Assembly: GCA_944390625.1 (NCBI GenBank)
Contig: CALXRH010000088.1
Location: forward strand, 1 to 54,614
Reading direction: 5' to 3'
From: an uncultured Clostridia bacterium
Lineage (GTDB): Bacteria > Bacillota > Clostridia > TANB77 > CAG-508
DNA length: 54,614 nt
In this document: one piece after another, positions 3,198-19,255 of the stretch
Layout: each line of letters starts with the position of its first letter
How positions within the stretch are numbered: position 1 is the stretch's first letter
The notes under the pieces: generated by a model
Database searches by the model: none
Told to the model about the DNA's origin: nothing
What the model saw: only the letters and a program-made list of their open reading frames with translations
Position numbers and translations under genes: made by a program

Positions 3198-5591
3198 ATG
3201 AGAAGAAAAACAAGAACAAAAGTAAAAAAAGCATTGAAGATTTCTGGCATAATTTTAGGAATTATTCTAATCATAGTAGCCATTGTTTTTATCATAAAAT
3301 TGAATCAGAAACAAGAAATATCTTATGATGATGGAATAGTTGGCAAAAATTATTTTACAGAAATCACAATCGATTTAAACACCAAGGAAGTTAAAAGAGA
3401 TGGAATAGAAACAACTTTACAAGAAGAGTTTGGCATTTCAGAAGAACAAGAGACACTAGGTTTTAGTTCAGAAGAAGAAATGAAAAAATTGTTATCCAAT
3501 TCCGTTTTTGATATAGCAGTTGATAAGCAAGTATTTACGATAAAAAATCCGTTTCAAACAAAAACAATCATTGTAGAGGCTGATGAAATAAAAGAGCAAG
3601 TACAAGGAGCAGAAACGATCGAAATTGCAGAAGGATTATATGTACTTAGCTTTTACTCAGAAAAACTAACCAAAGCAATGTATAATTATTACAAAGAACA
3701 AGAATATATCCATCAAGTTTTTTATGATGATGTCTTTATGGATGAGCCTCTTAATGATATCTCTCAAACCATGTATGGAGAAGTTCAAGTCGATTTAAAT
3801 AATCATCATTCTTTAGGGGTAACTACAATGAAATTAGATAATTACGCCAATATCATTCATGAAAATGGAAACCCGGCAGATATTGTAATTGCTACCATTG
3901 GATATGGAGTAGATTTTGAAAATGAATTTTTCCATGAAAGAATCGATGAAAATTATTATAATTTTATCTTAAATAACCAAGATATAACCGAAACCATTGC
4001 CCAGGGAAGCAGAATAGCAGAAGTGTTGGTAGATTCTACCACATCCAATGTAAAAATTATGCCATTGGTTACAGTAACAGAAGAAGGGTATACCTCAATA
4101 GCTAGCATCATAAAAGCAATTGCTTATGCAGTTGAACACGCAGATGTAGTTTGTTATGAATTAATTAACAAACAGCATGAAGCAATTGACAAAGTTTTAG
4201 AAAGAGCATTTCAAGAAAATGTACCAGTATGTGCCGTTACATCGAGTAGCGAAGAAAACTATCCAGCAAATCACGGCATGACAATAGCAACCTCATCAAT
4301 TGGTAGAGATTTAAATGTTACAGATTATTCAGCAACAGGAGATTATATCGATTTTGTAGCACCAAGTACGGATGTAGAAGAAATTTTTAAAATGACAGGG
4401 TCAACTGTTTCAAGATGGTCTGGACCAGGATATTCCAATGCACAAATAGCAGCATCCATAGCACTTATCAAAACCTATGATAAAAATGCAACCATTTTAG
4501 ATATCTATAATTTTTTAAGAAATTTTTGCATAGATTTAGGAGAAGAAGGAAAAGATGAACTTTATGGTTATGGCTATCCCAATTTTGAAAATCTAACCAT
4601 TGCCGATATTGACAAACGAGCACCTGAATTTAAAGAATTAACCTATGACAACGAAACATGGGAAGTGCTAAAACAAATCAAAATTATAGCAGAAGATAAT
4701 ATTAGAATCAATGCTTGGGCAATTACAAAAGATGAGAACGGACCTCGTGATAATGAATGGCAAATTTTACAATCTGTTACGCCTAATTTAGATGTAACTT
4801 CAGAAATCACAGAAAATGGAACCTACTATGTTTGGATACAAGATACAGCAGGCAATACCTCTACACAAGTAGTTGAGATAAACAAAATTGATACAACACC
4901 ACCACAAATAGCTTATACCATCAATCAAGACAATTTATCAGCAGGCTATGTAACCATAAATGTTACCGCGCAAGATGCAGATTCTGGTTTGTATGGTAGT
5001 CCATTTAGCTGGGATAAAAATACTTGGTCACAAGAAAATAGCACAAGAACCGTAAAACAAAACGGAAGATATAAAGTCTATGCAGTAGACAATTTAGGAA
5101 ATATTGGAGAATTAGAAATATTAGTAGATTGTTTCCCTCAAATAGGAACATATCAGCTAGGAGAAGGAAATATTATAACAGATATGACAGTTTCAGCAGA
5201 CTGGAATGGAAATACAAACAACCACGTACAAATTACTTTAAATAAAGATCTAGATATAACTGCTTGGCAAATAACAACTTCTATTTATGCTCCAAATGAT
5301 TTTGTAGAAGTAGAACCAAATGTCGTACCAGACAATAATAATAACAATAACAACAATACAACTAATACAATCAATACAAGTTTACCAAATAATGTTATCT
5401 GGGATAATACAGTACAGACCAATACAGAAGTATCGAATGAAGAACAAAATACACAGGCTGTAGTACCAAGAACAGAGCCGATTGTGTTAACTACTTCCTT
5501 AGATATCAATACAACCTATTATTTTTGGATAAAAGATAGTAATGGTAATACTTCTTATCAAACGTTTACAATAGCAAAAGCAAAAATATAA
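3198..5591 (+). CDS. membrane-anchored surface protein: subtilase (S8)-like domain without catalytic triad plus three C-terminal beta-sandwich-like repeats
   Basis: N-terminal TM helix (ISGIILGIILIIVAIVFII). Subtilase-like blocks IATIGYGVD, QGSRIAEVLV and SGPGYSNAQIAASIALI align to the Asp, His and Ser motifs but carry G, Q and G at the catalytic positions. Three modules end in YYVWIQDTAGNTS, YKVYAVDNLGNIG and YYFWIKDSNGNTS. There is also a poly-Asn linker. Confidence 0.6.
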   Translation: MRRKTRTKVKKALKISGIILGIILIIVAIVFIIKLNQKQEISYDDGIVGKNYFTEITIDLNTKEVKRDGIETTLQEEFGISEEQETLGFSSEEEMKKLLSNSVFDIAVDKQVFTIKNPFQTKTIIVEADEIKEQVQGAETIEIAEGLYVLSFYSEKLTKAMYNYYKEQEYIHQVFYDDVFMDEPLNDISQTMYGEVQVDLNNHHSLGVTTMKLDNYANIIHENGNPADIVIATIGYGVDFENEFFHERIDENYYNFILNNQDITETIAQGSRIAEVLVDSTTSNVKIMPLVTVTEEGYTSIASIIKAIAYAVEHADVVCYELINKQHEAIDKVLERAFQENVPVCAVTSSSEENYPANHGMTIATSSIGRDLNVTDYSATGDYIDFVAPSTDVEEIFKMTGSTVSRWSGPGYSNAQIAASIALIKTYDKNATILDIYNFLRNFCIDLGEEGKDELYGYGYPNFENLTIADIDKRAPEFKELTYDNETWEVLKQIKIIAEDNIRINAWAITKDENGPRDNEWQILQSVTPNLDVTSEITENGTYYVWIQDTAGNTSTQVVEINKIDTTPPQIAYTINQDNLSAGYVTINVTAQDADSGLYGSPFSWDKNTWSQENSTRTVKQNGRYKVYAVDNLGNIGELEILVDCFPQIGTYQLGEGNIITDMTVSADWNGNTNNHVQITLNKDLDITAWQITTSIYAPNDFVEVEPNVVPDNNNNNNNNTTNTINTSLPNNVIWDNTVQTNTEVSNEEQNTQAVVPRTEPIVLTTSLDINTTYYFWIKDSNGNTSYQTFTIAKAKI

Positions 5592-5636: not shown

Positions 5637-6635
5637 ATGTCATTTATAGAAGATATAAAAAATCGAGCAAAACAGAATATAAAAACAATTATCTTACCAG
5701 AGGCGGAAGATAAAAGGGTATTAGAGGCTGCCAGTAAAGTTGTTTTACAAGGATTTGCGAAGATTATTATTTTAGGTGATGAAAAAAAGATAGCCCAAGA
5801 TTGTAAAAACTATCATATAACGCTAAATGGAGTTAAAATAATTAATCCATTAACTTCCGAAAAAAGAGAAGAATACACAAAAAAATTATATGAATTAAGA
5901 AAAAATAAAGGAATGACAGAACAAGAAGCGGAAAAACTTTTAAAAGAACCAATCTATTTTGGAATGATGATGTTAAAAGACGAGAAGTCAGAGGCAGATG
6001 GTCTAGTATCTGGTGCAATCCATTCAACAGCAGATACGTTAAGACCAGCGCTTCAAATCTTAAAAACAAAACCAGGAACAAAACTAGTTTCTGCCTTCTT
6101 TGTGATGTGTGTTCCAAATTGTGAGTATGGAGAAAGCGGAACATTTATATTTGGAGATAGTGGTTTAAATCAAAATCCAACAGCAGAGGAACTTTCGGAA
6201 ATTGCCATATCTTCAGCCAAAAGCTTTGAGCAATTAGTTCAAAAAGAACCAAAAGTAGCTATGTTATCCTATTCTACTTATGGAAGTGCCAAATCAGAAC
6301 TTACCGAAAAAGTAATTCAAGCAACCAAACTTGTAAAAGAAAAAAATCAACAACTATTAGTAGATGGAGAATTGCAAGTCGATAGTGCCATTGTTCCAGA
6401 AATTGCTGCATCCAAAGCACCTGGAAGTGAATTAAAAGGAAAAGCAAATGTTCTAATATTTCCTGATTTAAATGCAGGAAATATAGGATACAAATTAGTA
6501 CAAAGGCTAGCAAAAGCAGAAGCATATGGACCACTTTGCCAAGGAATTGCCAAACCTGTTAATGACTTATCACGTGGATGTTCTGCAGATGACATAGTAG
6601 GAGTTGTTGCGATAACCGCTGTTCAAGCTCAATAG
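5637..6635 (+). CDS. pta: phosphate acetyltransferase (short form)
   Basis: 332-aa ORF with typical Pta blocks (ILPEAEDKRVLEA, GLVSGAIHSTADTLRPALQI, FPDLNAGNIGYK) and SD GGGAGGA. It is followed by acetate kinase genes. Confidence 0.93.
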   Translation: MSFIEDIKNRAKQNIKTIILPEAEDKRVLEAASKVVLQGFAKIIILGDEKKIAQDCKNYHITLNGVKIINPLTSEKREEYTKKLYELRKNKGMTEQEAEKLLKEPIYFGMMMLKDEKSEADGLVSGAIHSTADTLRPALQILKTKPGTKLVSAFFVMCVPNCEYGESGTFIFGDSGLNQNPTAEELSEIAISSAKSFEQLVQKEPKVAMLSYSTYGSAKSELTEKVIQATKLVKEKNQQLLVDGELQVDSAIVPEIAASKAPGSELKGKANVLIFPDLNAGNIGYKLVQRLAKAEAYGPLCQGIAKPVNDLSRGCSADDIVGVVAITAVQAQ

Positions 6636-6698: not shown

Positions 6699-7946
6699 AT
6701 GAAAATTTTAGTAGTGAATTCAGGAAGTTCGTCATTAAAATATCAAGTAATTGATATGCAAACCAATGAAATGTTAGTAAAGGGGAATTATGAAAGAATC
6801 GGGCAAGCTAATTCTTTTTTAACCCATAAAGTTCGAGGTATAAAACATAAATTTGAACATGAAGTTAAAAATCACGAGGAAGCAATCCAATTTATTTTAG
6901 CAAGAATATTAAATCGACATTATGGTGTTATGGAAAGTTTAGATGAATTAGCAGGAATTGGCCATAGGGTTGTTCATGGGGGAGAAAAATTTACTTCTTC
7001 AGTACTTATTACAGAAGAAGTGATAAAAGAAATTGAAAAATGTTCTGATTTAGCACCACTTCATAATCCAAGCGCAGTGGCTGGCATAAGAGCTTGTAGA
7101 AAAATTGTACCACAAATGAAGATGGTTGCTGTATTTGATACCTCTTTTCACCAAACGATCTCAAAAGAAAAATATATTTACCCAATTCCCTATGAATATT
7201 ATGAAAAATATGGAATTCGAAAATATGGGTTTCATGGAATTTCTCACCAGTATGTAAGCCAAAGAGTGGCAGAACTTATGAAACAGGATATAAAAGATTT
7301 AAAAATCATCAGTTGTCATTTAGGGCAAGGAGCCAGTCTTTGTGCGATTAAAGATGGAAAATCGGTCGAAACTACCATGGGGCTGACTCCACTTGGTGGA
7401 ATTCCAATGGGTTCAAGAAGTGGGGATTTAGATCCATCTGTTGTTACCTATTTAATCAAAAAATCTGAAAAACCAACGGTAGGAGTAAGAGAACTTACCA
7501 AAACAGATCACAAAGAGCTTTCACCAGATGAAATAGAAGAAATTTTAAATAAAAAATCTGGGGTATATGGAATTTCAAGAATATCTTTGGATTTTAGGGA
7601 TATTGAGCTAGATGCTTTATCTGGTGGGCATCATGCCAAATTAGCTTTAGAAGTATTTGACTATCGAGTTGCTCAGGAAATTGCTAAAATGGCAGTTGCC
7701 ATGGGAGGTGTTGATGTTATAACATTTGAGGCAGGAGTTGGCGAAAAAGGAGATTTAGATAGAAAACATATTTGTGAATATTTAGGCATTTTAGGTGTAA
7801 AACTTGATGAAGAAAAAAACCATGAAGCAAAAGGAGAAGAAAAGGAAATATCGAATTCTCATTCAAAAGTAAAAGTATGGGTTATTCCAACAAATGAAGA
7901 ATTAATGATTGCAAAAGAAACCTATGCATTAATTGAAAAAAGGTAA
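6699..7946 (+). CDS. ackA: acetate kinase paralog 1 (divergent, with an insertion)
   Basis: Motifs NSGSSSLKY, HRVVHGG, APLHNP, FDTSFHQT, GFHGISH and IPTNEELMIA. Relative to the downstream copy it has about 19 extra residues (SEKPTVGVRELTKTDHKELS) and FEAGVGEKG in place of FTGGVGEN. Confidence 0.85.
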   Translation: MKILVVNSGSSSLKYQVIDMQTNEMLVKGNYERIGQANSFLTHKVRGIKHKFEHEVKNHEEAIQFILARILNRHYGVMESLDELAGIGHRVVHGGEKFTSSVLITEEVIKEIEKCSDLAPLHNPSAVAGIRACRKIVPQMKMVAVFDTSFHQTISKEKYIYPIPYEYYEKYGIRKYGFHGISHQYVSQRVAELMKQDIKDLKIISCHLGQGASLCAIKDGKSVETTMGLTPLGGIPMGSRSGDLDPSVVTYLIKKSEKPTVGVRELTKTDHKELSPDEIEEILNKKSGVYGISRISLDFRDIELDALSGGHHAKLALEVFDYRVAQEIAKMAVAMGGVDVITFEAGVGEKGDLDRKHICEYLGILGVKLDEEKNHEAKGEEKEISNSHSKVKVWVIPTNEELMIAKETYALIEKR

Positions 7947-8027: not shown

Positions 8028-9218
8028 ATGAAAATATTAGTATTAAATTGTGGTAGTTCATCATTAAAATATCAATTAATTAATATGGAAACAGAAGAAG
8101 TTTTAGCTTCTGGAAAATATGAAAGAATAGGAGAAAAAGAAGCCTTTATTACCCACAAAGCTTGTGGTAAAAAAATAAAAATAGAACATACTGCTTTAAA
8201 CCACACAGAAGCGATTGATTTTACATTACAACAATTAACCAATCCAGAATATAAAGTAATTGATAATTTAGAAGAAGTAACAGCAATTGGACATAGACTT
8301 GTTCATGGAGGAGAAAAAATAAGTGAATCCTGTATCATCGACGATCAAGTAATAGAAGTCTTAAAAGAATGTACAGACCTAGCACCTCTTCATAATCCGG
8401 CAGGAATTATGGGAATCGAAGCTTGTCAAAAAGTTATGCCAGGAAAACCAATGGTAGGAGTATTTGATACAGCATTCCACCAAACTATGCCAAAAGAACA
8501 CTATATTTACCCAATTCCATATGAATTTTATAAAAAATATGGTATTCGAAAATACGGTTTCCATGGAACTTCTCATATGTATGTTTCTTCTAGACTTGCT
8601 AAGATAGAAGGAAAAGATATAAAAGATTTAAAAATTGTAACTTGTCACTTAGGGCAAGGTTCTAGTATTTGCGCAGTAGATGGTGGAAAATCCATTGATA
8701 CTTCTATGGGATTAACGCCACTTGGTGGAATTCCAATGGTTACCAGAAGTGGGGATTTAGACCCATCAGTTGTTACCTTTTTAATGAAAAAAGAAAATTT
8801 ATCAGCAGATGAAGTAGAAAATATTTTAAATAAAAAATCTGGTGTGCAAGGAATATCTGGTTTAGCACCAGACTTTAGAGAAATAGAAGCAGCATCTTAT
8901 GGGCAAAGTGAAAGAGCAGAAATTGCTATAAAAAGCTTTACTTATACAATTGCTAGCTATATAGCAAAATATGCCGTAGCTATGAAGGGAATGGATGCCA
9001 TTGTATTTACAGGAGGCGTTGGAGAAAACCAAATTAACATCCGTAAAATGATTTGCGAGCAACTTGAATTTATGGGGGTATATATGGATGTAGAAGCTAA
9101 TCATGTAAGAGGAGAAGAAAAATTAGTTTCTAGACCAGATTCGAAAGTTAGAATTTATGTTATACCAACTAATGAGGAATTAATGATTGCTAAAGAAACT
9201 AAAAAGTTAGTACAATAA
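8028..9218 (+). CDS. ackA: acetate kinase paralog 2 (canonical)
   Basis: 396 aa with NCGSSSLKY, HRLVHGG, APLHNP, FDTAFHQT, GFHGTSH, FTGGVGEN and IPTNEELMIA. Confidence 0.93.
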   Translation: MKILVLNCGSSSLKYQLINMETEEVLASGKYERIGEKEAFITHKACGKKIKIEHTALNHTEAIDFTLQQLTNPEYKVIDNLEEVTAIGHRLVHGGEKISESCIIDDQVIEVLKECTDLAPLHNPAGIMGIEACQKVMPGKPMVGVFDTAFHQTMPKEHYIYPIPYEFYKKYGIRKYGFHGTSHMYVSSRLAKIEGKDIKDLKIVTCHLGQGSSICAVDGGKSIDTSMGLTPLGGIPMVTRSGDLDPSVVTFLMKKENLSADEVENILNKKSGVQGISGLAPDFREIEAASYGQSERAEIAIKSFTYTIASYIAKYAVAMKGMDAIVFTGGVGENQINIRKMICEQLEFMGVYMDVEANHVRGEEKLVSRPDSKVRIYVIPTNEELMIAKETKKLVQ

Positions 9219-9233
9219 TTTTTAAAAATATTT

Positions 9234-9277
9234 AAACACTAGTATAAAATTTTAAAAAATTAATACTAGTGTTTTTT
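9234..9277 (+). terminator. intrinsic terminator after ackA paralog 2
   Basis: 12-bp stem AAACACTAGTAT / ATACTAGTGTTT followed by a T run. Confidence 0.8.
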
Positions 9278-9290
9278 AGGGTTCCTATTT

Positions 9291-9358
9291 TTTTTGAAAA
9301 ACAGATGTCAATGATTTTTGAAAAACAGATTGACTTTTTTTAAAATAACGATTATAAT
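9291..9358 (+). promoter_or_regulatory. sigma-A type promoter with two 16-nt direct repeats
   Basis: TTGACT (9330-9335), a 17-nt spacer, then TATAAT (9353-9358). TTTTTGAAAAACAGAT occurs twice (9291-9306 and 9315-9330), and the second copy abuts the -35 box. Confidence 0.6.
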
Positions 9359-9437
9359 TAAAAACATATTTATGATTATTTTCTTTATAAACATTTATTC
9401 AAAAATTTATTTCAAAAAAAGAGAGAGGTGAGATTCT

Positions 9438-9794
9438 ATGACTACTAAATTCGAAGAAATTATCTTAGAAGAAATTTTTAAATTATCTAGCAAAATCGAT
9501 AAGATACAAGATGAAATGAAAGGAATGGCAACAAAAGAAGATATTAAAAATATGGCGACCAAAGATGATATCAAAAACATGGCGACCAAAGATGACTTAA
9601 AAGCATTAGAAATAAGATTAGAAAAGAGAATGGATAAAAAATTCGAACAACAAACCAAAGACTTTATCGAAATGTTTGATGACAGTTTTAAATTAAATGC
9701 AAAATATAGACAAGAAATGAAAGAACAAATTACCAAAGAAACAGACCAAAAAATCGAGAGACTAAGAGAAGAACTTTTATGTAAAAGAGCTTAA
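9438..9794 (+). CDS. small coiled-coil protein with MATK(E/D)DIKN repeats
   Basis: 118-aa ORF with SD GAGAGAGGTGAG upstream. Charged heptad-like sequence. No family recognised. Confidence 0.6.
   Translation: MTTKFEEIILEEIFKLSSKIDKIQDEMKGMATKEDIKNMATKDDIKNMATKDDLKALEIRLEKRMDKKFEQQTKDFIEMFDDSFKLNAKYRQEMKEQITKETDQKIERLREELLCKRA
9525..9605 (+). repeat. 3 x 27-bp in-frame tandem repeat
   Basis: The units ATGGCAACAAAAGAAGATATTAAAAAT, ATGGCGACCAAAGATGATATCAAAAAC and ATGGCGACCAAAGATGACTTAAAAGCA encode MATKEDIKN, MATKDDIKN and MATKDDLKA. Confidence 0.9.
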
Positions 9795-9948
9795 GAGCAA
9801 AAAAGAAAACCTATTTACAATTTCTAAATTGTAGATAGGTATTTTTTGTAAATTTAAAAAAGTTTACATAAATTATTGAAAAAGAAAATAAAATGTGATA
9901 AAATATTGAATTAACATAATGAGCGAAAATATAGAAAAGGAGGGAATC

Positions 9949-12450
9949 ATGAATTCAGAAAATTTTGTAGCTAAATTTTATCTAGACAAAGAAAAAGATA
10001 TTGTAGTTAATTTATTAAAATCAAGCGAACCAGATGAATTAATTTATATCTTAAAAACGCCAAATCATCATACTGGAAATTTAATAACCAATCTAGCAAA
10101 AGTTGCAAACGTAGAAACCAAAAAAGATGAAAAAGATATGAAAATTATAACAGGTACTTTACCTGCTTGTATTAACGATGACGGAGAAGAAGTATATATT
10201 TTTCGATTAGGTGGAATCAAAATAGCTAATATTTATCCAGATGGAAGAATCGAAAGAAAAGCAAAGATTCCAGCTATTATAAAACTACTTATGGCGCAAA
10301 CAAAAGATTATAAGCTTCCTATTGAAAAAACAATTGTAAAATCTTATATATTAAAAAAATCAAAATTTAGAACAGATTTACATACTCATTTAAATCAAAT
10401 TTTACAGCCAGATTTATTAATTGCATTAGGAATGAAACATCAAATTGGATATTCCTTATATTATATTAAAAAACTAGGAATAAAAGTTACAGTCAAACAA
10501 GAAAAAGAGCTTTTCAAAAAAAGAAAAGAAGTAGAAAAAAAATATAAAAATTCAGAATTTACTGGTAAAATATTAGAGAGAAAAATTGATGACGAAGTTT
10601 TGATTAATCTAGCAGATTTAATATTAAATAATTTAGAAAATGCAGAAGAAAATATTGTAAAAATCAGAAATAGTCTAGTATTATTAAAAGATGGACAAGC
10701 CGTTTTTACGAATCTTGAAAAAACAATTTTATATCGATATGCGATTATTCGAGGCAAGCAAGTATCAGAAACAGAAAAGATAGATTTAAGTTTAGAAAAA
10801 ATAGAAGCAATAGAAGATAAAGATATCAGACAAGCCTTAAAGAAAATGTTAGAAGATAGCAAACCAGGAAACCAATATGAGCATAATACTTTTTATCAAG
10901 ATAAATTATTATGGATAGCAAGAGAATATCAAAAGCAAGGCATAAAATATGTTGAAATTGCTAACTCCACTTTACCAAAAAAAGGAGAAACTGGAATTAT
11001 GCATTTAGTGGAAATGCATGAAGTAATGCCAAAAATCGAGGAAGAAACAGGAGTTGCTATCCGCTATTTAGCAGCAGCAAGTAGAACCTTGTATACAAAA
11101 CAGCAGTTAAAAGAATGTCCAGCTGTAATAAAAGCATTAAGTAAAAGTCCTTATGTTGTCGGAATGGATTTAATCGGAGAAGAAATCAACAATGTAACCG
11201 ATTTTTCCGATATTATTGAGGAAATTGTAAAATATGCTATCTATGAAGATAAAGGATTTACCATAAGACTACATGCAGGGGAAACAGATGCCTTTAAAGA
11301 CAATGTAGAAAAAGCATTAGATTGTATCAAAATCTGTGTACCAAATGGACAAAAAGCACCACCATTTCGATTAGGCCATGGTTTATATGTTCCAGACTTA
11401 GATTCAAAAGAAGGAAAAAGGATTATAAACAAAATGAAAGATTTAGATGTAGTTTTAGAGTTCCAATTATCTTCTAATGTAAGACTAAATAATTTAACCA
11501 ATCTAAATAACCATCCTATGAAAAAATACTTAGAAGCAGGAGTAAAATGTGTGCAAGGAACAGATGGATGTGGTTTTTATGGAATCGATACAATCGATGA
11601 GCAAATTGCATTAAGAAATTTATTAGACATAAAAGATAGCAATTTTATGAGGATGAGAGATGTAGAAGAAGAAATTTTGGCAAAAAGAAAAGTTTATTTT
11701 GAAGAAAAATCAAAAAGATTTAAAGAATTTTTAGCAGGAAGAACAATCCAAGAAGCTTTGCAAGAGGAAGAAGAAAAAAACTTAGCCAATTTAGATTTAG
11801 ATAGTATCGATACCACCGGAGTCAATAACCTAAATTCTTACAAAGTTTTTCAAGAAAAAATCGTAAAACTTCCAACTGATAAAATGCCAATTGTAATAGC
11901 AGGAGGAAGTTTTAATTCAAAAGGAAGAATTACTACTTTAAATGAAGATACGAAAAAAGCATTAAAAGAATTATTAGAAAAAGTAGACAATAAAAATACT
12001 TATATTTTAATTGGACATAAAATGCAAGGATATGAAAGAGCAGTTTTAGATATTGCAAAAGAAATAAACAAAAAATTTAATGTAACAGCTGTGGTTCCAA
12101 AATATGTATCAGAAGACATAAAAGAAAATCTAGAAAACAACCAAGAGTTAAGTGGAATCTATGTTTCACCTGACCCATCAGAGCTTGGTATCTATAAGAG
12201 CTTTAATTATGAAATATTTGAAAGAAGAAATTCGGTAGTGGTTGCATTTGATGGAAATTCTCCCGTATCTAATTTAATTAAAGAAGCCAAAAATGGAAAA
12301 GGAAAAGCAAAAATCTATGTCAATTCTGATGTAGCATTATTAAAAGAAAAAGCAAGTTCTTTGGAAGGATATGTCAGGTTATTTAATCATGATAATAGTT
12401 TAGCAGAGGAGATTTTAGGGGATAATCCGGAGATAAGAGAGAATGCTTAA
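9949..12450 (+). CDS. multidomain protein: unknown N-domain + adenosine/AMP-deaminase-fold (amidohydrolase) domain + C-terminal SLOG/LOG-like Rossmann domain
   Basis: The start is moved to the ATG at 9949, which sits behind GGAGG (9939-9943). Deaminase-type metal and catalytic blocks appear in order: DLHTHLN, RLHAGE, RLGHGLYV, FQLSSNV, QGTDGCG. The C-terminus (IVIAGGSF, ILIGHKMQGYERAVLDIA, VVVAFDGNSPVSNLIKEAK) resembles LOG/TIGR00725/SLOG proteins. Confidence 0.6.
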   Translation: MNSENFVAKFYLDKEKDIVVNLLKSSEPDELIYILKTPNHHTGNLITNLAKVANVETKKDEKDMKIITGTLPACINDDGEEVYIFRLGGIKIANIYPDGRIERKAKIPAIIKLLMAQTKDYKLPIEKTIVKSYILKKSKFRTDLHTHLNQILQPDLLIALGMKHQIGYSLYYIKKLGIKVTVKQEKELFKKRKEVEKKYKNSEFTGKILERKIDDEVLINLADLILNNLENAEENIVKIRNSLVLLKDGQAVFTNLEKTILYRYAIIRGKQVSETEKIDLSLEKIEAIEDKDIRQALKKMLEDSKPGNQYEHNTFYQDKLLWIAREYQKQGIKYVEIANSTLPKKGETGIMHLVEMHEVMPKIEEETGVAIRYLAAASRTLYTKQQLKECPAVIKALSKSPYVVGMDLIGEEINNVTDFSDIIEEIVKYAIYEDKGFTIRLHAGETDAFKDNVEKALDCIKICVPNGQKAPPFRLGHGLYVPDLDSKEGKRIINKMKDLDVVLEFQLSSNVRLNNLTNLNNHPMKKYLEAGVKCVQGTDGCGFYGIDTIDEQIALRNLLDIKDSNFMRMRDVEEEILAKRKVYFEEKSKRFKEFLAGRTIQEALQEEEEKNLANLDLDSIDTTGVNNLNSYKVFQEKIVKLPTDKMPIVIAGGSFNSKGRITTLNEDTKKALKELLEKVDNKNTYILIGHKMQGYERAVLDIAKEINKKFNVTAVVPKYVSEDIKENLENNQELSGIYVSPDPSELGIYKSFNYEIFERRNSVVVAFDGNSPVSNLIKEAKNGKGKAKIYVNSDVALLKEKASSLEGYVRLFNHDNSLAEEILGDNPEIRENA

Positions 12451-12609: not shown

Positions 12610-13986
12610 ATGAAATATGATGTTTTGGTAATAGGTGCAGGTCCAGCAGGTATCGCTTGTGCGCGGGAGTTAAAAAACACTTATCCTAATGCAAAAGTAT
12701 GTATCATTGAAAAAGGACATCCGATTTCAAAAAGAAGATGTCCATCCCAAGAAAAAAAGATCAAATGTATAAACTGTAATGTTTGTGCGGTACTCTCTGG
12801 TTTTGGAGGTTCAGGTGCTAATTCAGATGGCAAGTTTACTATGCCACAAAAACCAGGACCATACCATATAGGAGGTACTCTTCCGACCTATATCGGATTA
12901 GAGGAAACCAATAGACTAATCTGGAAACAACATAATAATAATATGGCAATGGGAGCGCCAAACAACATTATCACTAAACGAGACGATGCCTTTATAAAAG
13001 ACTTTGATGAAAAACTCAGAAAAGTCGGGCTATTTCGGGCTGATGCAGATATCAACCATATAGGGACATCTGGAGTAAGAGAACTATACCAAGCATACGA
13101 AGATGAACTGAAAAAGCTTGGTGTAGAAATAAGCTTTGACACGGAAGTAACAGATATATTGCTTAATTCCGGTCGTATCATTGGAGTCATACTTAGTAAT
13201 GGCGAAAGAATCAAGGCAAGAAATATTGTTCTTGCAACTGGTCGTTCTGGCAGCAAATGGATGGAAGAGATGACGAAAAAGCATGATATCGCAATTGAGC
13301 CGGAAGAGGTGGATTTCGGTATTCGTGTAGAGGTGCCAGCACGTGTTATGGAACTGGTAGACAAAAACCTATATGAAGCCAAGATAATTGGTGAATATGG
13401 TAATGTAATGGTACGTATGTTTTGCACTAACCCATATGGAGCGGTTGTCTGCGAAACAGCAGATGGCATTAAATATGTCAATGGCCATGCGGATAACGTA
13501 AAGTTATCTGAAAACACGAACTTTGCGGTGCTAGCGACTTATAGAGTAAATGATAAAAACCCATCTCGGCTTGTCAGAAATATAGCAAGCTTTATTAATA
13601 ACGAAGGTGATGGACAACCGATAGTACAGAGATGGGGAGATTTAAAAATGGCAGCAGCAACTTCGAAGTTAGGACTTGAATTAAATTCCGTAACTCCCTC
13701 ACTTAGAAGCGCAACACCAGGGAATATGACAACCGTTTTTCCGGAAAAAGCGTTAACTGCGATTAAGCAGTATATGAACGATTTAGGAAAAGTGATTCAA
13801 GGCATTGACAATGATGACACTCTTGCCTATGGACTTGAAGCCAAATTCTGCCATAGCGGACTGGCTTTAAATAATGTGCTAGAATGCAGCATAGGTGCTT
13901 ATGTTATCGGAGATGCAGGACCAACGCATGGTTTGGCGTCAGCAGCAGCATCTGGAATCCATGTTGCACATTGCATAAAGTTATAG
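12610..13986 (+). CDS. FAD-dependent oxidoreductase (COG2509-like)
   Basis: The dinucleotide-binding motif VLVIGAGPAGIACA is followed by a Cys cluster (CPSQEKKIKCINCNVC). SD AAGGAGGA. The gene is visibly richer in GC and in CGN, GCG and CCG codons than its neighbours. Confidence 0.75.
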   Translation: MKYDVLVIGAGPAGIACARELKNTYPNAKVCIIEKGHPISKRRCPSQEKKIKCINCNVCAVLSGFGGSGANSDGKFTMPQKPGPYHIGGTLPTYIGLEETNRLIWKQHNNNMAMGAPNNIITKRDDAFIKDFDEKLRKVGLFRADADINHIGTSGVRELYQAYEDELKKLGVEISFDTEVTDILLNSGRIIGVILSNGERIKARNIVLATGRSGSKWMEEMTKKHDIAIEPEEVDFGIRVEVPARVMELVDKNLYEAKIIGEYGNVMVRMFCTNPYGAVVCETADGIKYVNGHADNVKLSENTNFAVLATYRVNDKNPSRLVRNIASFINNEGDGQPIVQRWGDLKMAAATSKLGLELNSVTPSLRSATPGNMTTVFPEKALTAIKQYMNDLGKVIQGIDNDDTLAYGLEAKFCHSGLALNNVLECSIGAYVIGDAGPTHGLASAAASGIHVAHCIKL

Positions 13987-14167: not shown

Positions 14168-15661
14168 ATGGCAACCTATTTAACAGAGCCATCAAGAACA
14201 TTTAACGAATATTTATTAATTCCAAGATTAACAACAAGAGAATGCACACCAGACAAAATCTCATTAAAAACACCACTTGTAAAACACAAAGAAGGAGAAG
14301 AAGCTTCTATGTACTTAAATGTACCATTTACATCAGCCATAATGCAAGCAGTTTCAGGAGTAAATATGGGAATTTCTTTAGCAAGAGAAGGTGGAATTGC
14401 ATTTATCTATATGTCACAATCCATAGAAGACCAAGCACAAATGGTTAGAGATGTAAAAGAATCCAAATCTGGATTTGTAAAAAGCAAATGGAATTTAAAA
14501 CCAACTGATACTTTAAAAGATATCTTAAAAATAAAAGAAGAAAGTGACCATACAACCATTCCAGTAACAGAAGATGGAACAGCTTCTGGAAAACTTTTAG
14601 GAATCATAACAAGCAAAGACTATAGACTTACCAGAGATAGTTTAGATAAAAAAGCAGAAGAAATTATGACACCAATTTCTAAATTAACTTATGCCAAAGT
14701 TGGATTAACATTATCAGAAGCAAATGATATGATATGGGAAAACAAAATCAATTGCTTGCCAGTGGTAGAAGAAAATGGCAATTTAAATTCTTTAGTATTT
14801 CGAAAAGATTATGAACAACACAAAGAAAATCCATTATCCCTTTTGGACGAAAACCACAGTTATATGGTAGGAGCAGGTGTCAACACAAGAGACTATGAAG
14901 AAAGAATACCAGCTTTAGTAGAAGCAGGAGTAGATATTTTATGTTTAGATTCTTCTGATGGTTATTCTGTTTGGCAAAAAGAAGTAATTGAATGGGTACA
15001 TAATAAATATAATGGAAAAGTAAAAATCGGAGCAGGAAATGTTGTAAGCCAAGAAGCATTCTATTATTTAGCAGATGCCGGAGCAGACTTCATTAAAATC
15101 GGAATTGGTGGAGGCTCTATTTGTATCACTCGTGAAACAAAAGGAATCGGAAGAGGACAAGCATCCGCTATTATCGATGTAGCAGAAGCTCGTGATGAAT
15201 ATGCCAAAAGAACCGGTATCTATATTCCAATTTGCTCAGATGGAGGAATTGTACATGACCATCATATAACACTTGCTTTAGCTATGGGATGCGATTTTGT
15301 CATGATGGGAAGATATTTTGCAAGATTTGATGAAAGCCCAACAACCAAAATAAGATTAAATGGCGAATTTGTAAAAGAATATTGGGGTGAAGGATCCAAA
15401 AGAGCAAGAAGTTGGCAAAGATATGACTTAGGTGGAAAAAATGAAAAAATGTCTTTTGTAGAAGGGGTAGATTCTTATATACCATATGCTGGACCATTAA
15501 AAGACAATTTAGATATGACTATCAAAAAAATCAAATCAACGATGTCAAATTGTGGTTCCAGAAATTTAGAAGAATTTCATGAGAAAGCTATTTTAACACC
15601 AGTATCGAATTTAAGTATCCAAGAAGGCTCTGCTCATGATTTAACCGTAAGAGAAGTATAA
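14168..15661 (+). CDS. guaB: IMP dehydrogenase
   Basis: 497 aa with a CBS pair inserted in a TIM barrel. Catalytic loop [35 protein letters not shown]. Confidence 0.9.
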
Positions 15662-15667
15662 AGGATA

Positions 15668-17647
15668 GTGAAAGATATGAATGAATTTAGAAAAAGTCAC
15701 CAAGTTTCAAAGAGTGAATTAAATAGAAGCAAAGAAATTATTAGAAAATTAGATGAATTAGAACAAATCTATAATCCAGAAAGGCAAAATTTAGATAGAA
15801 GAACCAATATATTAAGATCCGGAGATAATATCTACTTAAATGTAATGTTAATAACAGGATTATTATTTTCGATTAATGATAGTTCAAAAGGAACGGTAGA
15901 TTCAACCATTACAGGAAGAATTAAGTCAATAGAAAGTACAAGACTAAAAACAAACAGAGCAGGAAGAGAAAACAAAAAAAATAGAGATATTGTAGCATGC
16001 TGTGTAAGTATTGATCGAGTTCATAATTCTAAAAACTTTTTTAATATATTCAGATCCGATAAAATACAAGGATTATATAATGAAAGAAAATCGAATTTGG
16101 TTCTTATGAAGATTGCAATTGATTTTCTAAGAGAATTTGATATGTATGGAATTTCATCAGAATTAGATGATAAATTATCTCATGAAGAATCGAGACGTAG
16201 ATTACAGCAAATGAAAAATGATTGTCAAATCATCTTAGATAATATTAACACTTATTATAAAGAAGAAGGAACCAATTTATCGGAAGAAGAATTTCCAATC
16301 AGGGAATGGTTGCAAGTAATGTGTGAAGATTTAATGCAACAAGAAGCAGAAAGAGCGGTAAAAACTTTAGACAAAGAAATAGAAAGAATGGAAAAAGAGC
16401 AAGGAGATGCAGAAAGTACATTTGAAGAAAATTTAAGTAAAGTTAATTTAAACAATCTGAAAATGAGAAAAAATATGCTTGATACCAAAACAAGTCATAC
16501 CCAAAAAGAACTGATTACCATATTAAATGGTGTAATCGATGAAGAAAGAATGGAATTGTATAAGTCTGTTTTGCAATATTTAAAAGAAAGAGAAATTGAG
16601 GAAAGTTATGATGACAATACGAATAAAGTAGAAAGTAGTAAAGAAAAAACTTATTGTGAAATTTTAATGTTAATCTTATACCAACTAACAAAATTAGAAT
16701 TTGTCAAAGAAAGTCAATATAAGGGTTTAATTTATCAAAACATATGGAGAAACTTACAAAATCAAATTGAATTATATAAATATTGTGAAGTAGATCATGG
16801 AACTTATGGAAATATAACATTTGAAAATTTACAAAAATTATTAACCAATTTAATAAGACTAAATGCTAGATTAAGTGACCCCTTACAATATGAAATCTCC
16901 AAATATCAAATGAGATATTCTTTAAAATCTATTATACAGGCATATAAAGGAACCGATCTTATGGTATGTGAAGAAAAGATAAAGCCAAATGGTTATGTTG
17001 CTGACCATTATGATTTTGATGATTTTGAAATAAAAGCAATGACCCACTTTAGAGAAAGGGTAGCAACAATTGGTAGTGCTTCTTATACAAACGGTAGGAT
17101 TGACAATAAAGATGAGAAAAAGAAAGAGATTTCAAATTTAAATTATGGTAGATACATGCTAAAAATACCAGAAAGACCACCAATTATAAAATTTGCAGAA
17201 CTAACAACAAGATTAGGCAAAAAATTATCGCTAGATGACTCTTTAAAAAAATATATTCAAGAAAACCAAAATACTGCTGAAGTAAAAGCTGGTATCGAAA
17301 AATGGAGAAAAAAAGTTTTGGGAATTATTCCTAGGTATTTTTCAGCAAGATACAATGAAGAAAAAAATGTGGTTGAAATTGAATTTTTGAGTGAAGTAAA
17401 AAATGTAAATAAACTTTATTCAGAAACAAGTATACTTCAAGTTAGAGAAGAAGTAAAACGAAAAACAAAACAATTAAAAAAATTAGGATTTCTATTAGAT
17501 GAACCATTAAAAATAGAGGTATCCAGAACGCAATATAGGGATTTTCTCCAATATGAATTAAAAAATTTAAAAAATAAAATCGATACAAAATTAAATCCAA
17601 AAGAACAAGATGACCAGAAAACAAAAGGAATGGCACCAGAAGCGTAA
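15668..17647 (+). CDS. hypothetical protein with split RelA/SpoT-like nucleotidyltransferase motifs and a long coiled-coil insertion
   Basis: 659-aa ORF; the start is uncertain (GTG 15668 or ATG 15677). GRIKSIESTRLK...DIVACCVSI resembles the N-terminal (p)ppGpp-synthetase block. About 330 aa further on, KPNGYVADHYDF..FEIKAMTHFRERVATIGSASY resembles the NGYxSxH / EIQIRT..A..G.A.H.YK block. Confidence 0.4.
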   Translation: MKDMNEFRKSHQVSKSELNRSKEIIRKLDELEQIYNPERQNLDRRTNILRSGDNIYLNVMLITGLLFSINDSSKGTVDSTITGRIKSIESTRLKTNRAGRENKKNRDIVACCVSIDRVHNSKNFFNIFRSDKIQGLYNERKSNLVLMKIAIDFLREFDMYGISSELDDKLSHEESRRRLQQMKNDCQIILDNINTYYKEEGTNLSEEEFPIREWLQVMCEDLMQQEAERAVKTLDKEIERMEKEQGDAESTFEENLSKVNLNNLKMRKNMLDTKTSHTQKELITILNGVIDEERMELYKSVLQYLKEREIEESYDDNTNKVESSKEKTYCEILMLILYQLTKLEFVKESQYKGLIYQNIWRNLQNQIELYKYCEVDHGTYGNITFENLQKLLTNLIRLNARLSDPLQYEISKYQMRYSLKSIIQAYKGTDLMVCEEKIKPNGYVADHYDFDDFEIKAMTHFRERVATIGSASYTNGRIDNKDEKKKEISNLNYGRYMLKIPERPPIIKFAELTTRLGKKLSLDDSLKKYIQENQNTAEVKAGIEKWRKKVLGIIPRYFSARYNEEKNVVEIEFLSEVKNVNKLYSETSILQVREEVKRKTKQLKKLGFLLDEPLKIEVSRTQYRDFLQYELKNLKNKIDTKLNPKEQDDQKTKGMAPEA

Positions 17648-17716: not shown

Positions 17717-19255
17717 TTATTCCCACTCAATTGTTGCAGGTGGTTTATAAGTAATATCATAAACCACACGATTGACAAATTTAACCTCATTTACAATGCG
17801 AGAAGAAACTTTTTCTAAAATTTCATACGGAATTTTACTCCAAACACCTGTCATAAAATCAGTTGTTTCAACAGCACGTAAGGCTATCGTATAATCATAA
17901 GTGCGTTCATCTCCCATAACGCCAACGGAGCGTAAATTAGTTAGTACTGCAAAATATTGATTAATCGATTTATGAAGACCGGATTTAGCAATTTCTTCTC
18001 TAAAAATAGCATCTGCCTCTCTTAAAATATCTAGTTTATCTTTCGTAATATCTCCAATTACGCGGATTGCTAAACCTGGACCAGGGAAAGGTTGTCTAAA
18101 AACTAAGTTTTCTGGAATACCAAGTTCTAATCCAACTTTTCTTACTTCATCTTTAAATAAATTTCTTAAAGGTTCTACAATTTCTTTAAAATCCACATAA
18201 TCTGGAAGACCACCTACATTGTGATGACTTTTAATAACAGAACTCTTACCAAGACCGCTTTCAATGACATCTGGATAGATGGTACCTTGTACTAAAAAAT
18301 CAACCGTTCCAAGTTTTTTTGCTTCTTGTTCGAAAACGCGAATAAATTCTTCTCCAATAATTTTTCTTTTCTTTTCTGGGTCTGTAACACCAGCTAATTT
18401 TTCTAAAAAACGATTTTCGGCATTGACTCTGATTAAATTTATATCATATTGTTCTCTAAAAATTTTTTCTACTTCATCTCCTTCATTTTTACGAAGAAGT
18501 CCATGGTCAACAAAAATACAAGTTAAATTTTTACCAATTGCTTTGCTTAAAAGAACAGCTGCAACAGAAGAATCTACACCACCAGATAAAGCACATAATG
18601 CTTTTCCGTTACCAATTTTTTCTTTTAAGGTTTTAATGGAATCTTCGACAAAAGAAGACATTTGCCAATCTCCTTGACAATTACAAATTTGATATAAGAA
18701 ATTTTTTATAACTAGAATGCCATTTTCTGAGTTATTTACTTCTGGATGAAATTGGATACCATATAATTTTTTCTCATCATTTGCCATAGCAGCATTTGGG
18801 CAAGAATCTGTCTTACCAATATTTTTAAATCCTACTGGTACGGTTTCTACAAAATCAGTATGGCTCATTAAAAATCCATTTGTAGTTTCAAATCCATCAA
18901 ACAATTTGGATGTATTGTCTATGAAAACACGAGTTGTACCATATTCACGTTTCTCCGCACGAGTAACTTTTCCTCCTAAGGTATGTGTCATAAGTTGCAT
19001 ACCATAACAGATTCCTAGGATAGGAATACCAAGCTCAAAAATTTGAGGGCCACATTTTGGACTATTCTCACCATAAACACTAGCAGGTCCTCCTGTAAAA
19101 ATGATACCTTTTGGATTTTTTTCTTTAATTTTTTCAATCGAAATATCAAAAGGTACTACTTCAGAATAAACATTGCATTCTCTTACTCTACGAGCAATTA
19201 ATTGATTATATTGTCCACCAAAATCTAGTATTAAAATCACTTCATTTTTTTTCAA
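17717..19255 (-). CDS. guaA: GMP synthase (glutamine-hydrolysing)
   Basis: 512 aa with the GATase block GICYGMQ, the PP-loop SGGVDSS and the C-terminal PPATIEWE. Confidence 0.97.

Follow-up and report, generated by a model that had tools for sequence, protein, structure and literature searches.

A three-part ADA-SLOG protein between ackA and guaB in uncultured Clostridia, possibly a ligand-gated adenine-nucleotide deaminase

The gene and the domains of its product

The stretch analysed here, referred to as the window, is the 54,614-nucleotide (54.6-kb) contig CALXRH010000088.1 from an uncultured Clostridia bacterium. On its plus strand, between an acetate-kinase gene (ackA) and guaB, lies a gene that we call ADA-SLOG after the two recognisable domains of its product, an adenosine deaminase (ADA) domain and a C-terminal SLOG domain. 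The list of open reading frames (ORFs) gives a plus-strand frame spanning 9919..12450; the likely start is the ATG at 9949, and the stop at 12450 closes a product of 833 amino acids (aa). The same methionine starts orthologues of 828-838 aa. A reading made earlier from the sequence alone (the sequence-only reading) had described an 833-aa product with an ordered set of motifs, and all of those that it quoted are found in the order and place that it gave. The features of the gene and its upstream region are listed below.

9809..9840, plus strand: terminator-like hairpin and T-run, a 14-pair stem followed by ATTTTTTGTA (pattern match only)
9876..9904, plus strand: promoter-like TTGAAA-17-TAAAAT, 10 of 12 matches, with an extended -10 (TG before the -10)
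9936..9944, plus strand: ribosome-binding site AAAGGAGGG, 4 nt 5' of the ATG at 9949 (read straight from the sequence)
9949..12450, plus strand: coding sequence of the N-domain/ADA/SLOG protein, stop codon included
9949..10323, plus strand: N-terminal alpha+beta domain, aa 1-~125, conserved across the family alignment
10360..11673, plus strand: ADA/AMP-deaminase domain (amidohydrolase TIM barrel), aa ~138-575, from Pfam, Foldseek and alignment
10396..10908, plus strand: helical region after the HxH strand, aa ~150-320, helices in the model
11674..11868, plus strand: long helical linker from deaminase to SLOG, aa 576-640, the least conserved segment
11869..12447, plus strand: SLOG-superfamily Rossmannoid domain, LSDAT/TRPM-like, aa 641-833

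The central domain is a true adenosine/AMP-deaminase fold that keeps the full catalytic set. Pfam A_deaminase (PF00962) matches aa 324-569 with 65.7 bits against a gathering cut-off of 27 (E 5e-18). The family blocks are DLHTHLN (aa 143-149), RLHAGE (440-445), RLGHGLYV (474-481), FQLSSNV (505-511) and GTDG (537-540), and alignment to the family identifies H145, H147, H442 and D539 as the metal ligands and E445 and H477 as the catalytic residues. Across 44 aligned members, down to 20% identity, H442, E445, H477 and D539 are invariant and H145 and H147 nearly so. An AlphaFold2 model of the full protein, built on 44 family sequences, has a predicted local distance difference test (pLDDT) score of 91.5 and a predicted template-modelling score of 0.90. 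The top matches of this model in a Foldseek search of the PDB are human ADAL1, mouse and human ADA and AMP deaminase, with Cad1 lower down (E 7e-12 to 1e-8); 8qch is matched at E 6.6e-12 and 1fkx at E 2.8e-11, with a template-modelling score on the target of ~0.70. Sequence searches of the PDB return adenosine deaminases from Plasmodium and from bacteria (E 4e-9 and weaker). The evidence for the deaminase far exceeds what chance would give, and the fold, the ordered blocks and the GTDG in place of TDDP that the sequence-only reading had proposed are borne out. The Add equivalogs TIGR01430 and PRK09358 were matched far below their cut-offs (best 65.6 bits vs 426, and 63.1 vs 216.55). Against viral structures (BFVD), the full model gave one ADA-like match plus weak DprA matches.

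Two active-site positions bear on the substrate. G540 replaces the second Asp of TDDP, which we take to correspond to D296 of mouse ADA, a purine contact; this residue is Gly in at least 90% of the 44 aligned members. The residue two positions after HxH, presumably the counterpart of the D19 that contacts the ribose 5'-OH in mouse ADA, is never Asp in the family and is instead N, A, S, T, G or M. The short HxH peptide returned only chance Nup84 matches from the PDB. Taken together, the intact catalytic set, the missing D19-type Asp and the Gly at the D296 position point to a competent aminohydrolase with a substrate other than a plain nucleoside. The enzyme probably deaminates an adenine nucleotide.

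The C-terminal domain was identified through its relatives. In the model, seven beta-alpha (strand-helix) units occupy aa 646-825, and the glycine motifs that had been cited are present as IVIAGGSF (aa 648-655), ILIGHKMQGYERAVLDIA (686-703) and VVVAFDGNSPVSNLIKEAK (763-781). Scanned against Pfam, the window C-domain (aa 631-833) matches no SLOG family at E up to 1. When 24 homologous C-domains were scanned singly, 12 matched LSDAT_prok (best E 3.7e-7), three YAcAr, two LSDAT_euk and two LDcluster4; LSDAT_prok is Pfam's "SLOG in TRPM, prokaryote", and the LSDAT families are PF18171 and PF18139. The LOG family (Lysine_decarbox, TIGR00725/PF03641) was matched by 0 of the 24. Two full-length relatives, P0272 and P0285, show sub-threshold LSDAT matches right after the deaminase, and the window C-domain matches P0272 at E 6.5e-7 and another relative, P0273, at E 8e-10. 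An hhalign comparison of the window-type with the canonical-type domain gives 98.7% probability (E 1.9e-16, 195 columns). A C-domain profile searched against PDB sequences returned sub-threshold matches to the SLOG regions of TRPM2 and TRPM8 (E 0.4-0.6) together with chance matches, and a C-domain search of 90% clusters returned only fragments of the ADA-SLOG family, with no named stand-alone relative. Because relatives match LSDAT_prok and hhalign ties the window-type to the canonical-type domain, we assign the C-domain, by homology through relatives only, to the LSDAT/TRPM clade of the SLOG superfamily and not to LOG. The sequence-only reading, which had seen a SLOG/LOG-like domain in the last 190 aa, was right about the superfamily and wrong about LOG.

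Three glycine-rich loops of the SLOG/LOG-type Rossmannoid, after strands 1, 2 and 4, have the family consensus PIxIxGxS..W, YFVTGGTxxGVEK and GGGxxVxDxIQxAxN. The window clade has GGS (IAGGSF), IGHKMQGYER and FDGNSPVSNLIKEAKNG instead, which are conserved within the clade and altered with respect to the family. The glycine motifs that the sequence-only reading relied on are degenerate forms of the TGGTxxGVEK and GGGxxVxDxIQ loops of other members. The LOG motif PGGxGTxxE is absent, its place being taken by GGGxxVxDxIQ in the family and FDGNSPVSNLIKE in the window. SLOG domains are regarded as nucleotide-processing enzymes or non-catalytic nucleotide sensors. The SLOG domain of ThsA is a proven ligand sensor that binds 3'cADPR. 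LOG enzymes, which also belong to SLOG, split N-glycosidic bonds in AMP derivatives. The SLOG domain of TRPM2 binds ADP-ribose.

The remaining segments are less readily assigned. A separate model of the N-domain has a pLDDT of ~90 over aa 10-120, and its best Foldseek matches in the PDB reach E 0.1 (ExsC, NanoLuc, PprA), with no CARF or Rossmann match; no Pfam family matches it in twelve full-length members scanned. As modeled, the N-domain has no recognised fold, in keeping with its earlier description as unassignable; it spans aa 1-~125. The long helical insertion that had been noted after HxH is present in the model at aa ~150-320. These ~170 aa exceed canonical ADA, with the Pfam match picking up again at aa 324, and carry a family-conserved QxTFxxMExxYxxRxPFxK in which F253 and R263 are nearly invariant. 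The linker forms helices at aa 563-595 and 600-613, with a dip in pLDDT at 622-624.

All five protein segments are under purifying selection, with the ratio of nonsynonymous to synonymous substitution rates (dN/dS) against the closest orthologue at 0.03-0.10 for every domain. The N-domain stands at 0.08 and the linker at 0.10-0.31, and the value of 0.03 for SLOG is the lowest of all domains. Because it is the most conserved domain, SLOG appears to be functional and not vestigial. Synonymous divergence among the orthologues of the lineage is 0.7 to >1.

The hairpin at 9809..9840 closes the small ORF upstream and separates it from the ADA-SLOG gene. Because this terminator-like hairpin and a promoter-like site precede it, both of them pattern matches only, the gene looks monocistronic with its own promoter. 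Promoter-like sites are no commoner than in shuffles of this AT-rich region, which makes the site at 9876..9904 weak evidence. Rfam identified no riboswitch or other regulatory RNA upstream of or near the gene. The G+C content is 0.25-0.26 at 9001-11000 of the window versus about 0.29-0.33 in most of it; this dip extends over the small ORF and the intergenic spacer and into the ADA-SLOG gene as far as its middle.

The locus and its lineage

The window gene is a solo gene long retained in its lineage. Nine genomes were matched, all metagenome-assembled genomes (MAGs) labelled "uncultured Clostridia bacterium" or Clostridium sp., and their sample names (human (Hadza), rabbit and others) presumably indicate gut. 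Relatives at 77-91% protein identity have the gene in the same position, with ackA on one side and guaB on the other. This holds in at least seven related species-level genomes, in which its level of identity follows those of pta, ackA and guaB, and only the immediate flanks vary among close relatives. The sequence-only reading had placed the gene in a small accessory stretch; the flanks do vary, but the gene itself is syntenic across at least 8 species and diverges like pta, ackA and guaB. In a clade with 59% identity the gene lies elsewhere, alone between a leucine-rich-repeat protein gene and SpoIIE. guaB or guaA is also close to ADA-SLOG in five loci of relatives (L002-L005 and L009; locus handles begin with L and protein handles with P).

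The gene order in the window is pta, two acetate-kinase genes, a 118-aa ORF, ADA-SLOG, a FAD-dependent protein, guaB, a 659-aa ORF and a guaA-like gene. The coordinates of three of these genes are as follows.

5637-6635: pta (Pfam scan)
14168-15661: guaB
17717-19255: guaA-like gene, minus strand

Among the scanned neighbors (three upstream, three downstream and the small ORF) there is no TIR, CARF/cas or RdrA gene, and PADLOC finds no known defense gene among them. The 54.6-kb window holds no CRISPR array or spaced repeats. The partner families described below for distant relatives (c150, PLC-like, PGDYG, NUDIX) were not detected in the window or in L001-L009.

Several neighbors have features of their own. 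The two acetate-kinase genes after pta stand in tandem (6699-7946 and 8028-9218), are ~57% identical to each other, and are both kept in L001, L003 and L009. The 118-aa coiled-coil ORF (9438-9794) contains a 27-nt tandem repeat at 9525-9595 that encodes MATKDDIKN ~2.6 times, and has no match in Pfam, PADLOC, NCBIfam or PHROGs. It is missing at the same position in relatives; L003 instead has HD-like, unknown and DHH/DHHA1 genes upstream. The FAD-dependent protein (12610-13986, HI0933-like/FAD-depend_C) is 36-38% identical to the product of the same-position gene in L001, L003 and L004, whereas the genes that flank it are 84-92% identical between the window and relatives. Because of this difference, the FAD gene may have been replaced by a paralogue or xenologue. 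The 659-aa ORF directly after guaB (15668-17647) has no Pfam match, and its counterparts after guaB in L004 and L009 share 49-51% identity with it. Farther away, the window carries a T-box leader (118 bits) at 159-378 and a lone tRNA-Thr(GGT) on the minus strand at 34288-34363.

The wider family and its partner genes

A search of 1.84 billion representatives recovered 821 clusters (50% identity) with E no higher than 1e-3, of which 130 have E no higher than 1e-30. Among long relatives (700-1070 aa, 22-35% identity), almost every one has both the deaminase and the C-terminal domain, and their public names are only "hypothetical protein" or "adenosine deaminase". They occur in MAGs labelled Clostridia, Christensenellaceae, Bacilli, Alphaproteobacteria/Azospirillum and Ignavibacteriales. 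Neighboring genes were clustered over the contexts of looked-up relatives and 58 metagenome loci, the latter found with a 15-sequence subset of the alignment.

One recurring arrangement involves c150, a protein of ~150 aa. It starts within ~160 nt after the ADA-SLOG stop, or overlaps it, in ten loci, and appears from this spacing to be translationally coupled to ADA-SLOG. The c150 loci are L022 (where the gene lies at 5795-6268), L023, L024, L031, L074 and L076-L079; L014 carries a further copy ~1.4 kb downstream. The protein has an EKYNPDNIFKN motif and a basic amphipathic C-terminal tail, is sometimes present in two or three copies per locus, and has no relative in Pfam, the PDB, PHROGs or PADLOC. 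The four most similar out-of-clade relatives with retrieved context all have c150 near: it lies immediately downstream of P0259, P0266 and P0271, and P0272 (L013) has a shorter c150 remnant upstream.

A PGDYG protein (PF14083, 27.8-30.9 bits vs a cut-off of 27) adjoins ADA-SLOG in at least five groups, and such neighbors from an alphaproteobacterial and an Ignavibacteriales locus are 43% identical. The PGDYG domain is fused to the ADA-SLOG C-terminus in L026, L027 and L029. Relatives of the PGDYG protein (28-34% identity, hypothetical) are found in Xanthomonas, Yersinia and Vibrio jumbo phages (AP018399.1, OR620964.1, MN047793.1, MT366761.1). In L046 (2156-14983), from a freshwater-type metagenome, a 4275-aa ORF contains ADA at aa 2752-2995, PGDYG at 3324-3413 and Fic at 3812-3854; it resembles a polyvalent or toxin-like protein of giant size that holds an ADA-SLOG module.

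A ~170-aa domain encoded upstream in several loci gives a weak Zn-dependent phospholipase C (PLC) signal in two of six members (best E 6.5e-4), and this PLC-like domain is fused to the ADA-SLOG N-terminus in L032 and L038. In a second operon type, ADA-SLOG precedes a 91-92-aa ORF, after which comes a large NUDIX protein (L015 10597-12251; L075 10624-13239); between these two loci the small ORF is 55% identical and the NUDIX protein 45%. Further genes for NUDIX, Ham1 or NTPase_I-T proteins are found close to ADA-SLOG in L013, L074 and L076. L074 has Ham1p_like (ITPase) at 1564-2133, NUDIX-NrtR at 2348-3028 and NTPase_I-T at 15696-16226, all within 8 kb of ADA-SLOG, PGDYG and c150, a proximity that may be chance or may reflect a link to inosine-nucleotide clean-up. 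Relaxase/TnpV, serine recombinase or DNA methyltransferase (N6/N4) genes are nearby in several loci.

About half of the groups with enough flank, environmental ones included, show no partner. Neither ADA-SLOG nor c150 was found in viral contigs, phage genomes or plasmid collections, and contig scans returned close relatives only. When the protein and its partners were run through PADLOC and PHROGs, only the ADA part of CARF_ADA, NUDIX, and PGDYG phrogs with no assigned function were matched. The label "RyR-like" for a ~300-aa neighbor cluster (L031_9, L032_0, L076_up) was withdrawn, as its members have no Pfam match; a Pfam RyR neighbor occurs only in L013. No homology links the 404-aa and 460-aa proteins encoded downstream in L014 and L015.

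Possible functions and likeness to known systems

We favor, at a probability of about 0.45, the reading that ADA-SLOG is a ligand-gated adenine-nucleotide deaminase and the solo descendant of a mobile multigene system, without committing it to a biological role. The zinc-dependent ADA domain would act on a 5'-phosphorylated substrate (from AMP/dAMP to ATP/dATP) and turn its adenine into hypoxanthine. SLOG, which the long helical linker joins to the deaminase, would bind an adenine-nucleotide-type ligand, for example one that is ADP-ribose-like or ATP-like, and would switch the deaminase allosterically, probably via oligomerisation. The N-domain could be a second input or an assembly module. 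The output would be a signal-dependent shift of the adenine nucleotide pool toward inosine nucleotides. The ancestor is envisaged as a horizontally mobile multigene ADA-SLOG system, and the copy in gut Clostridia as a solo sensor-effector with its own promoter.

Substrate class, ligand, gating and biological role are inferred, with Cad1, ThsA and KomA as the precedents for nucleotide deamination and SLOG gating. Several points weigh against this proposal. Because the SLOG loops of the window are degenerate (GG to GH, GGG to DGN), ligand binding there may differ or be lost. In structure searches, SLOG is hinted at only by the weak DprA matches in BFVD (E 0.08-0.12), and the full-length Foldseek search is dominated by ADA matches. 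Gly at the D296 position could signal a non-standard substrate. No signal-generating enzyme (TIR, cyclase) stands beside any family member examined, and the derivation from a partnered ancestor follows a similarity ranking and not a rooted tree.

A more specific possibility, which we regard as doubtful though worth keeping in view, is that ADA-SLOG is the core of an undescribed mobile conflict system with c150 and, variably, a PLC-like, PGDYG or NUDIX protein. Its TRPM-like SLOG would bind an ADP-ribose-type or other adenine-nucleotide messenger and gate deamination of ATP/dATP or of the messenger, with Thoeris/Cad1-like logic in which TIR and CARF are dispensed with; the gene in the window would then be a solo copy, domesticated and long kept. 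Slightly more doubtful is a role in abortive infection, as an anti-phage effector like Cad1 or RADAR, in which an infection cue acting through SLOG or the N-domain would unleash conversion of ATP/dATP to ITP/dITP and arrest the cell, or, in a Kongming-like variant, an inosine-nucleotide signal would be made. The best PADLOC match, to the ADA part of CARF_ADA (E 1e-12), and the Cad1 fold match (E 1e-8) agree with such an effector, as does SLOG being the sensor of the Thoeris effector ThsA. So do the placement of relatives in small operons beside relaxase/TnpV, recombinase, N6/N4 methyltransferase and NUDIX/Ham1-type genes, the patchy spread over Clostridia, Bacilli, Alphaproteobacteria and Ignavibacteriales, and the copy within the 4275-aa ORF with a Fic domain. 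However, the gene is fixed at one locus in at least seven species-level genomes, with a synonymous divergence of 0.7 to >1 that tracks its housekeeping neighbors, which is unusual for defense genes. It also has its own promoter and no partner genes, no known defense gene, TIR, cas or CRISPR array lies nearby, PADLOC matches nothing beyond the ADA part in the protein or the partners, and no homologue was found in phage, viral and plasmid collections. The defense link raised by the sequence-only reading thus lacks local support in the absence of TIR, CARF/cas, RdrA and CRISPR, and gains some from distant relatives in small operons near mobile-element genes.

The same stability would suit a housekeeping enzyme, an allosteric AMP/adenosine deaminase that feeds IMP to guaB/guaA with SLOG as an energy-charge or purine-pool sensor, comparable to the regulatory regions of eukaryotic AMP deaminase. 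We consider this unlikely. The gene is vertically inherited and strongly constrained, without partners and with its own promoter, and guaB and the guaA-like gene are nearby, as one or the other is in L002-L005 and L009. However, the guaB link is ordinary synteny of close relatives, and the metabolic reading offered earlier, which had drawn on this proximity in the window, loses it in the 59%-identical clade. Rfam detects no purine riboswitch or regulatory RNA upstream, and the protein scores 65 bits where every NCBIfam adenosine-deaminase equivalog cut-off exceeds 200. Because the wider family is patchy and associated with mobile elements, a core metabolic enzyme is a poor fit. A signal quencher, in which SLOG would capture an adenine messenger (ADP-ribose, a cADPR isomer, cyclic oligoadenylate or cAMP) for deamination by ADA, seems quite improbable. 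ADA-family enzymes that deaminate cAMP have been reported, and Gly at the D296 position with the missing D19-type Asp hints at a non-standard substrate; relatives repeatedly have NUDIX partners, whose usual substrates are ADP-ribose or nucleotides, and PGDYG partners are related to jumbo-phage proteins. Nevertheless, no messenger-producing gene is linked to any member examined, and the window clade is without a partner gene. Hardly credible at all is bifunctional purine catabolism, in which SLOG would be a LOG-like phosphoribohydrolase that cleaves a nucleotide while ADA deaminates its substrate or product. LOG enzymes are SLOG members, and the two activities would make a short pathway, but none of the 24 C-domains matches LOG and PGGxGTxxE is absent.

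PF00962 deaminases underlie three anti-phage systems, RADAR, Cad1 and Kongming. SLOG is the proven messenger sensor of Thoeris and TRPM2 channels, and its union with such a deaminase would be a fourth way to wire adenine-nucleotide deamination to a signal, in a large family that extends over several phyla, is common in gut metagenomes, and has partners that match no known defense model. Once identified, the substrate and the ligand of SLOG could point to a novel nucleotide messenger or a novel mode of purine-pool control. Should the conflict reading be true, the long-lived solo copy would represent a conflict module turned host gene; were the protein a regulated AMP deaminase instead, it would supply a missing step in how bacteria interconvert purines. 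The sequence-only reading had not recognised the three-part architecture as characterised, and no description of it was found: the literature full text yields no ADA-SLOG link and no mention of PGDYG, although an earlier purely computational mention may exist, and a TIR-system survey and an NAD/ADPr survey do not mention the architecture.

Cad1 (CARF-ADA) is a type III CRISPR ancillary effector in which ligand binding switches on conversion of ATP to ITP and arrests growth. Like ADA-SLOG, it has a linker between a PF00962 deaminase and a Rossmann-like nucleotide-sensor domain, and the likeness in PADLOC is confined to the ADA part (profile 333-544). However, its sensor is an N-terminal CARF, whereas here there is a C-terminal SLOG and an extra N-domain; the type III CRISPR context is missing around the window gene, and a sequence search does not pick up Cad1 chains, not even when it uses the ADA-SLOG family profile. 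ThsA (type I Thoeris, SIR2-SLOG) shares the plan of an enzymatic effector with a C-terminal SLOG, but its effector is SIR2 where ours is ADA, the SLOG here is LSDAT/TRPM-like by Pfam, and no TIR (ThsB) gene occurs among the window neighbors or in 14 annotated contexts of relatives. RdrB of RADAR is likewise a large (800-900 aa) ADA-fold protein with insertions, and PMC9994260 describes this defense protein with twelve deaminase active sites exposed on a dodecameric complex. In contrast, no RdrA ATPase is present among the window neighbors, and PADLOC gives no RdrB match. To our knowledge, RdrB carries no SLOG.

KomA of Kongming, also a PF00962 deaminase, converts dAMP to dIMP in defense, with HAM1/ITPase-type proteins linked to it, and Ham1, NUDIX and NTPase_I-T genes lie near some ADA-SLOG members. 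KomA differs in being a single-domain ADA in a KomABC operon with a SIR2 effector; KomB (HAM1-like) and KomC (SIR2-like) are absent around the window gene, and a Ham1p_like gene 6 kb from one distant relative is the only such case. The prokaryotic LSDAT/TRPM SLOG domains are the closest profile family for the C-domain of relatives, but here the domain is fused to a deaminase rather than to a membrane or channel module, and that of the window falls below Pfam thresholds. Add and eukaryotic AMP deaminase, the latter a large, allosterically regulated enzyme, share the fold and the catalytic machinery, yet they lack the ~170-aa helical region and these N- and C-domains and have TDDP in place of GTDG. 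ADA-SLOG fails the defining features of Cad1, RADAR, Thoeris, Kongming, LOG and housekeeping Add, and it is best filed with proteins in which a sensor domain is fused to a nucleotide-modifying effector.

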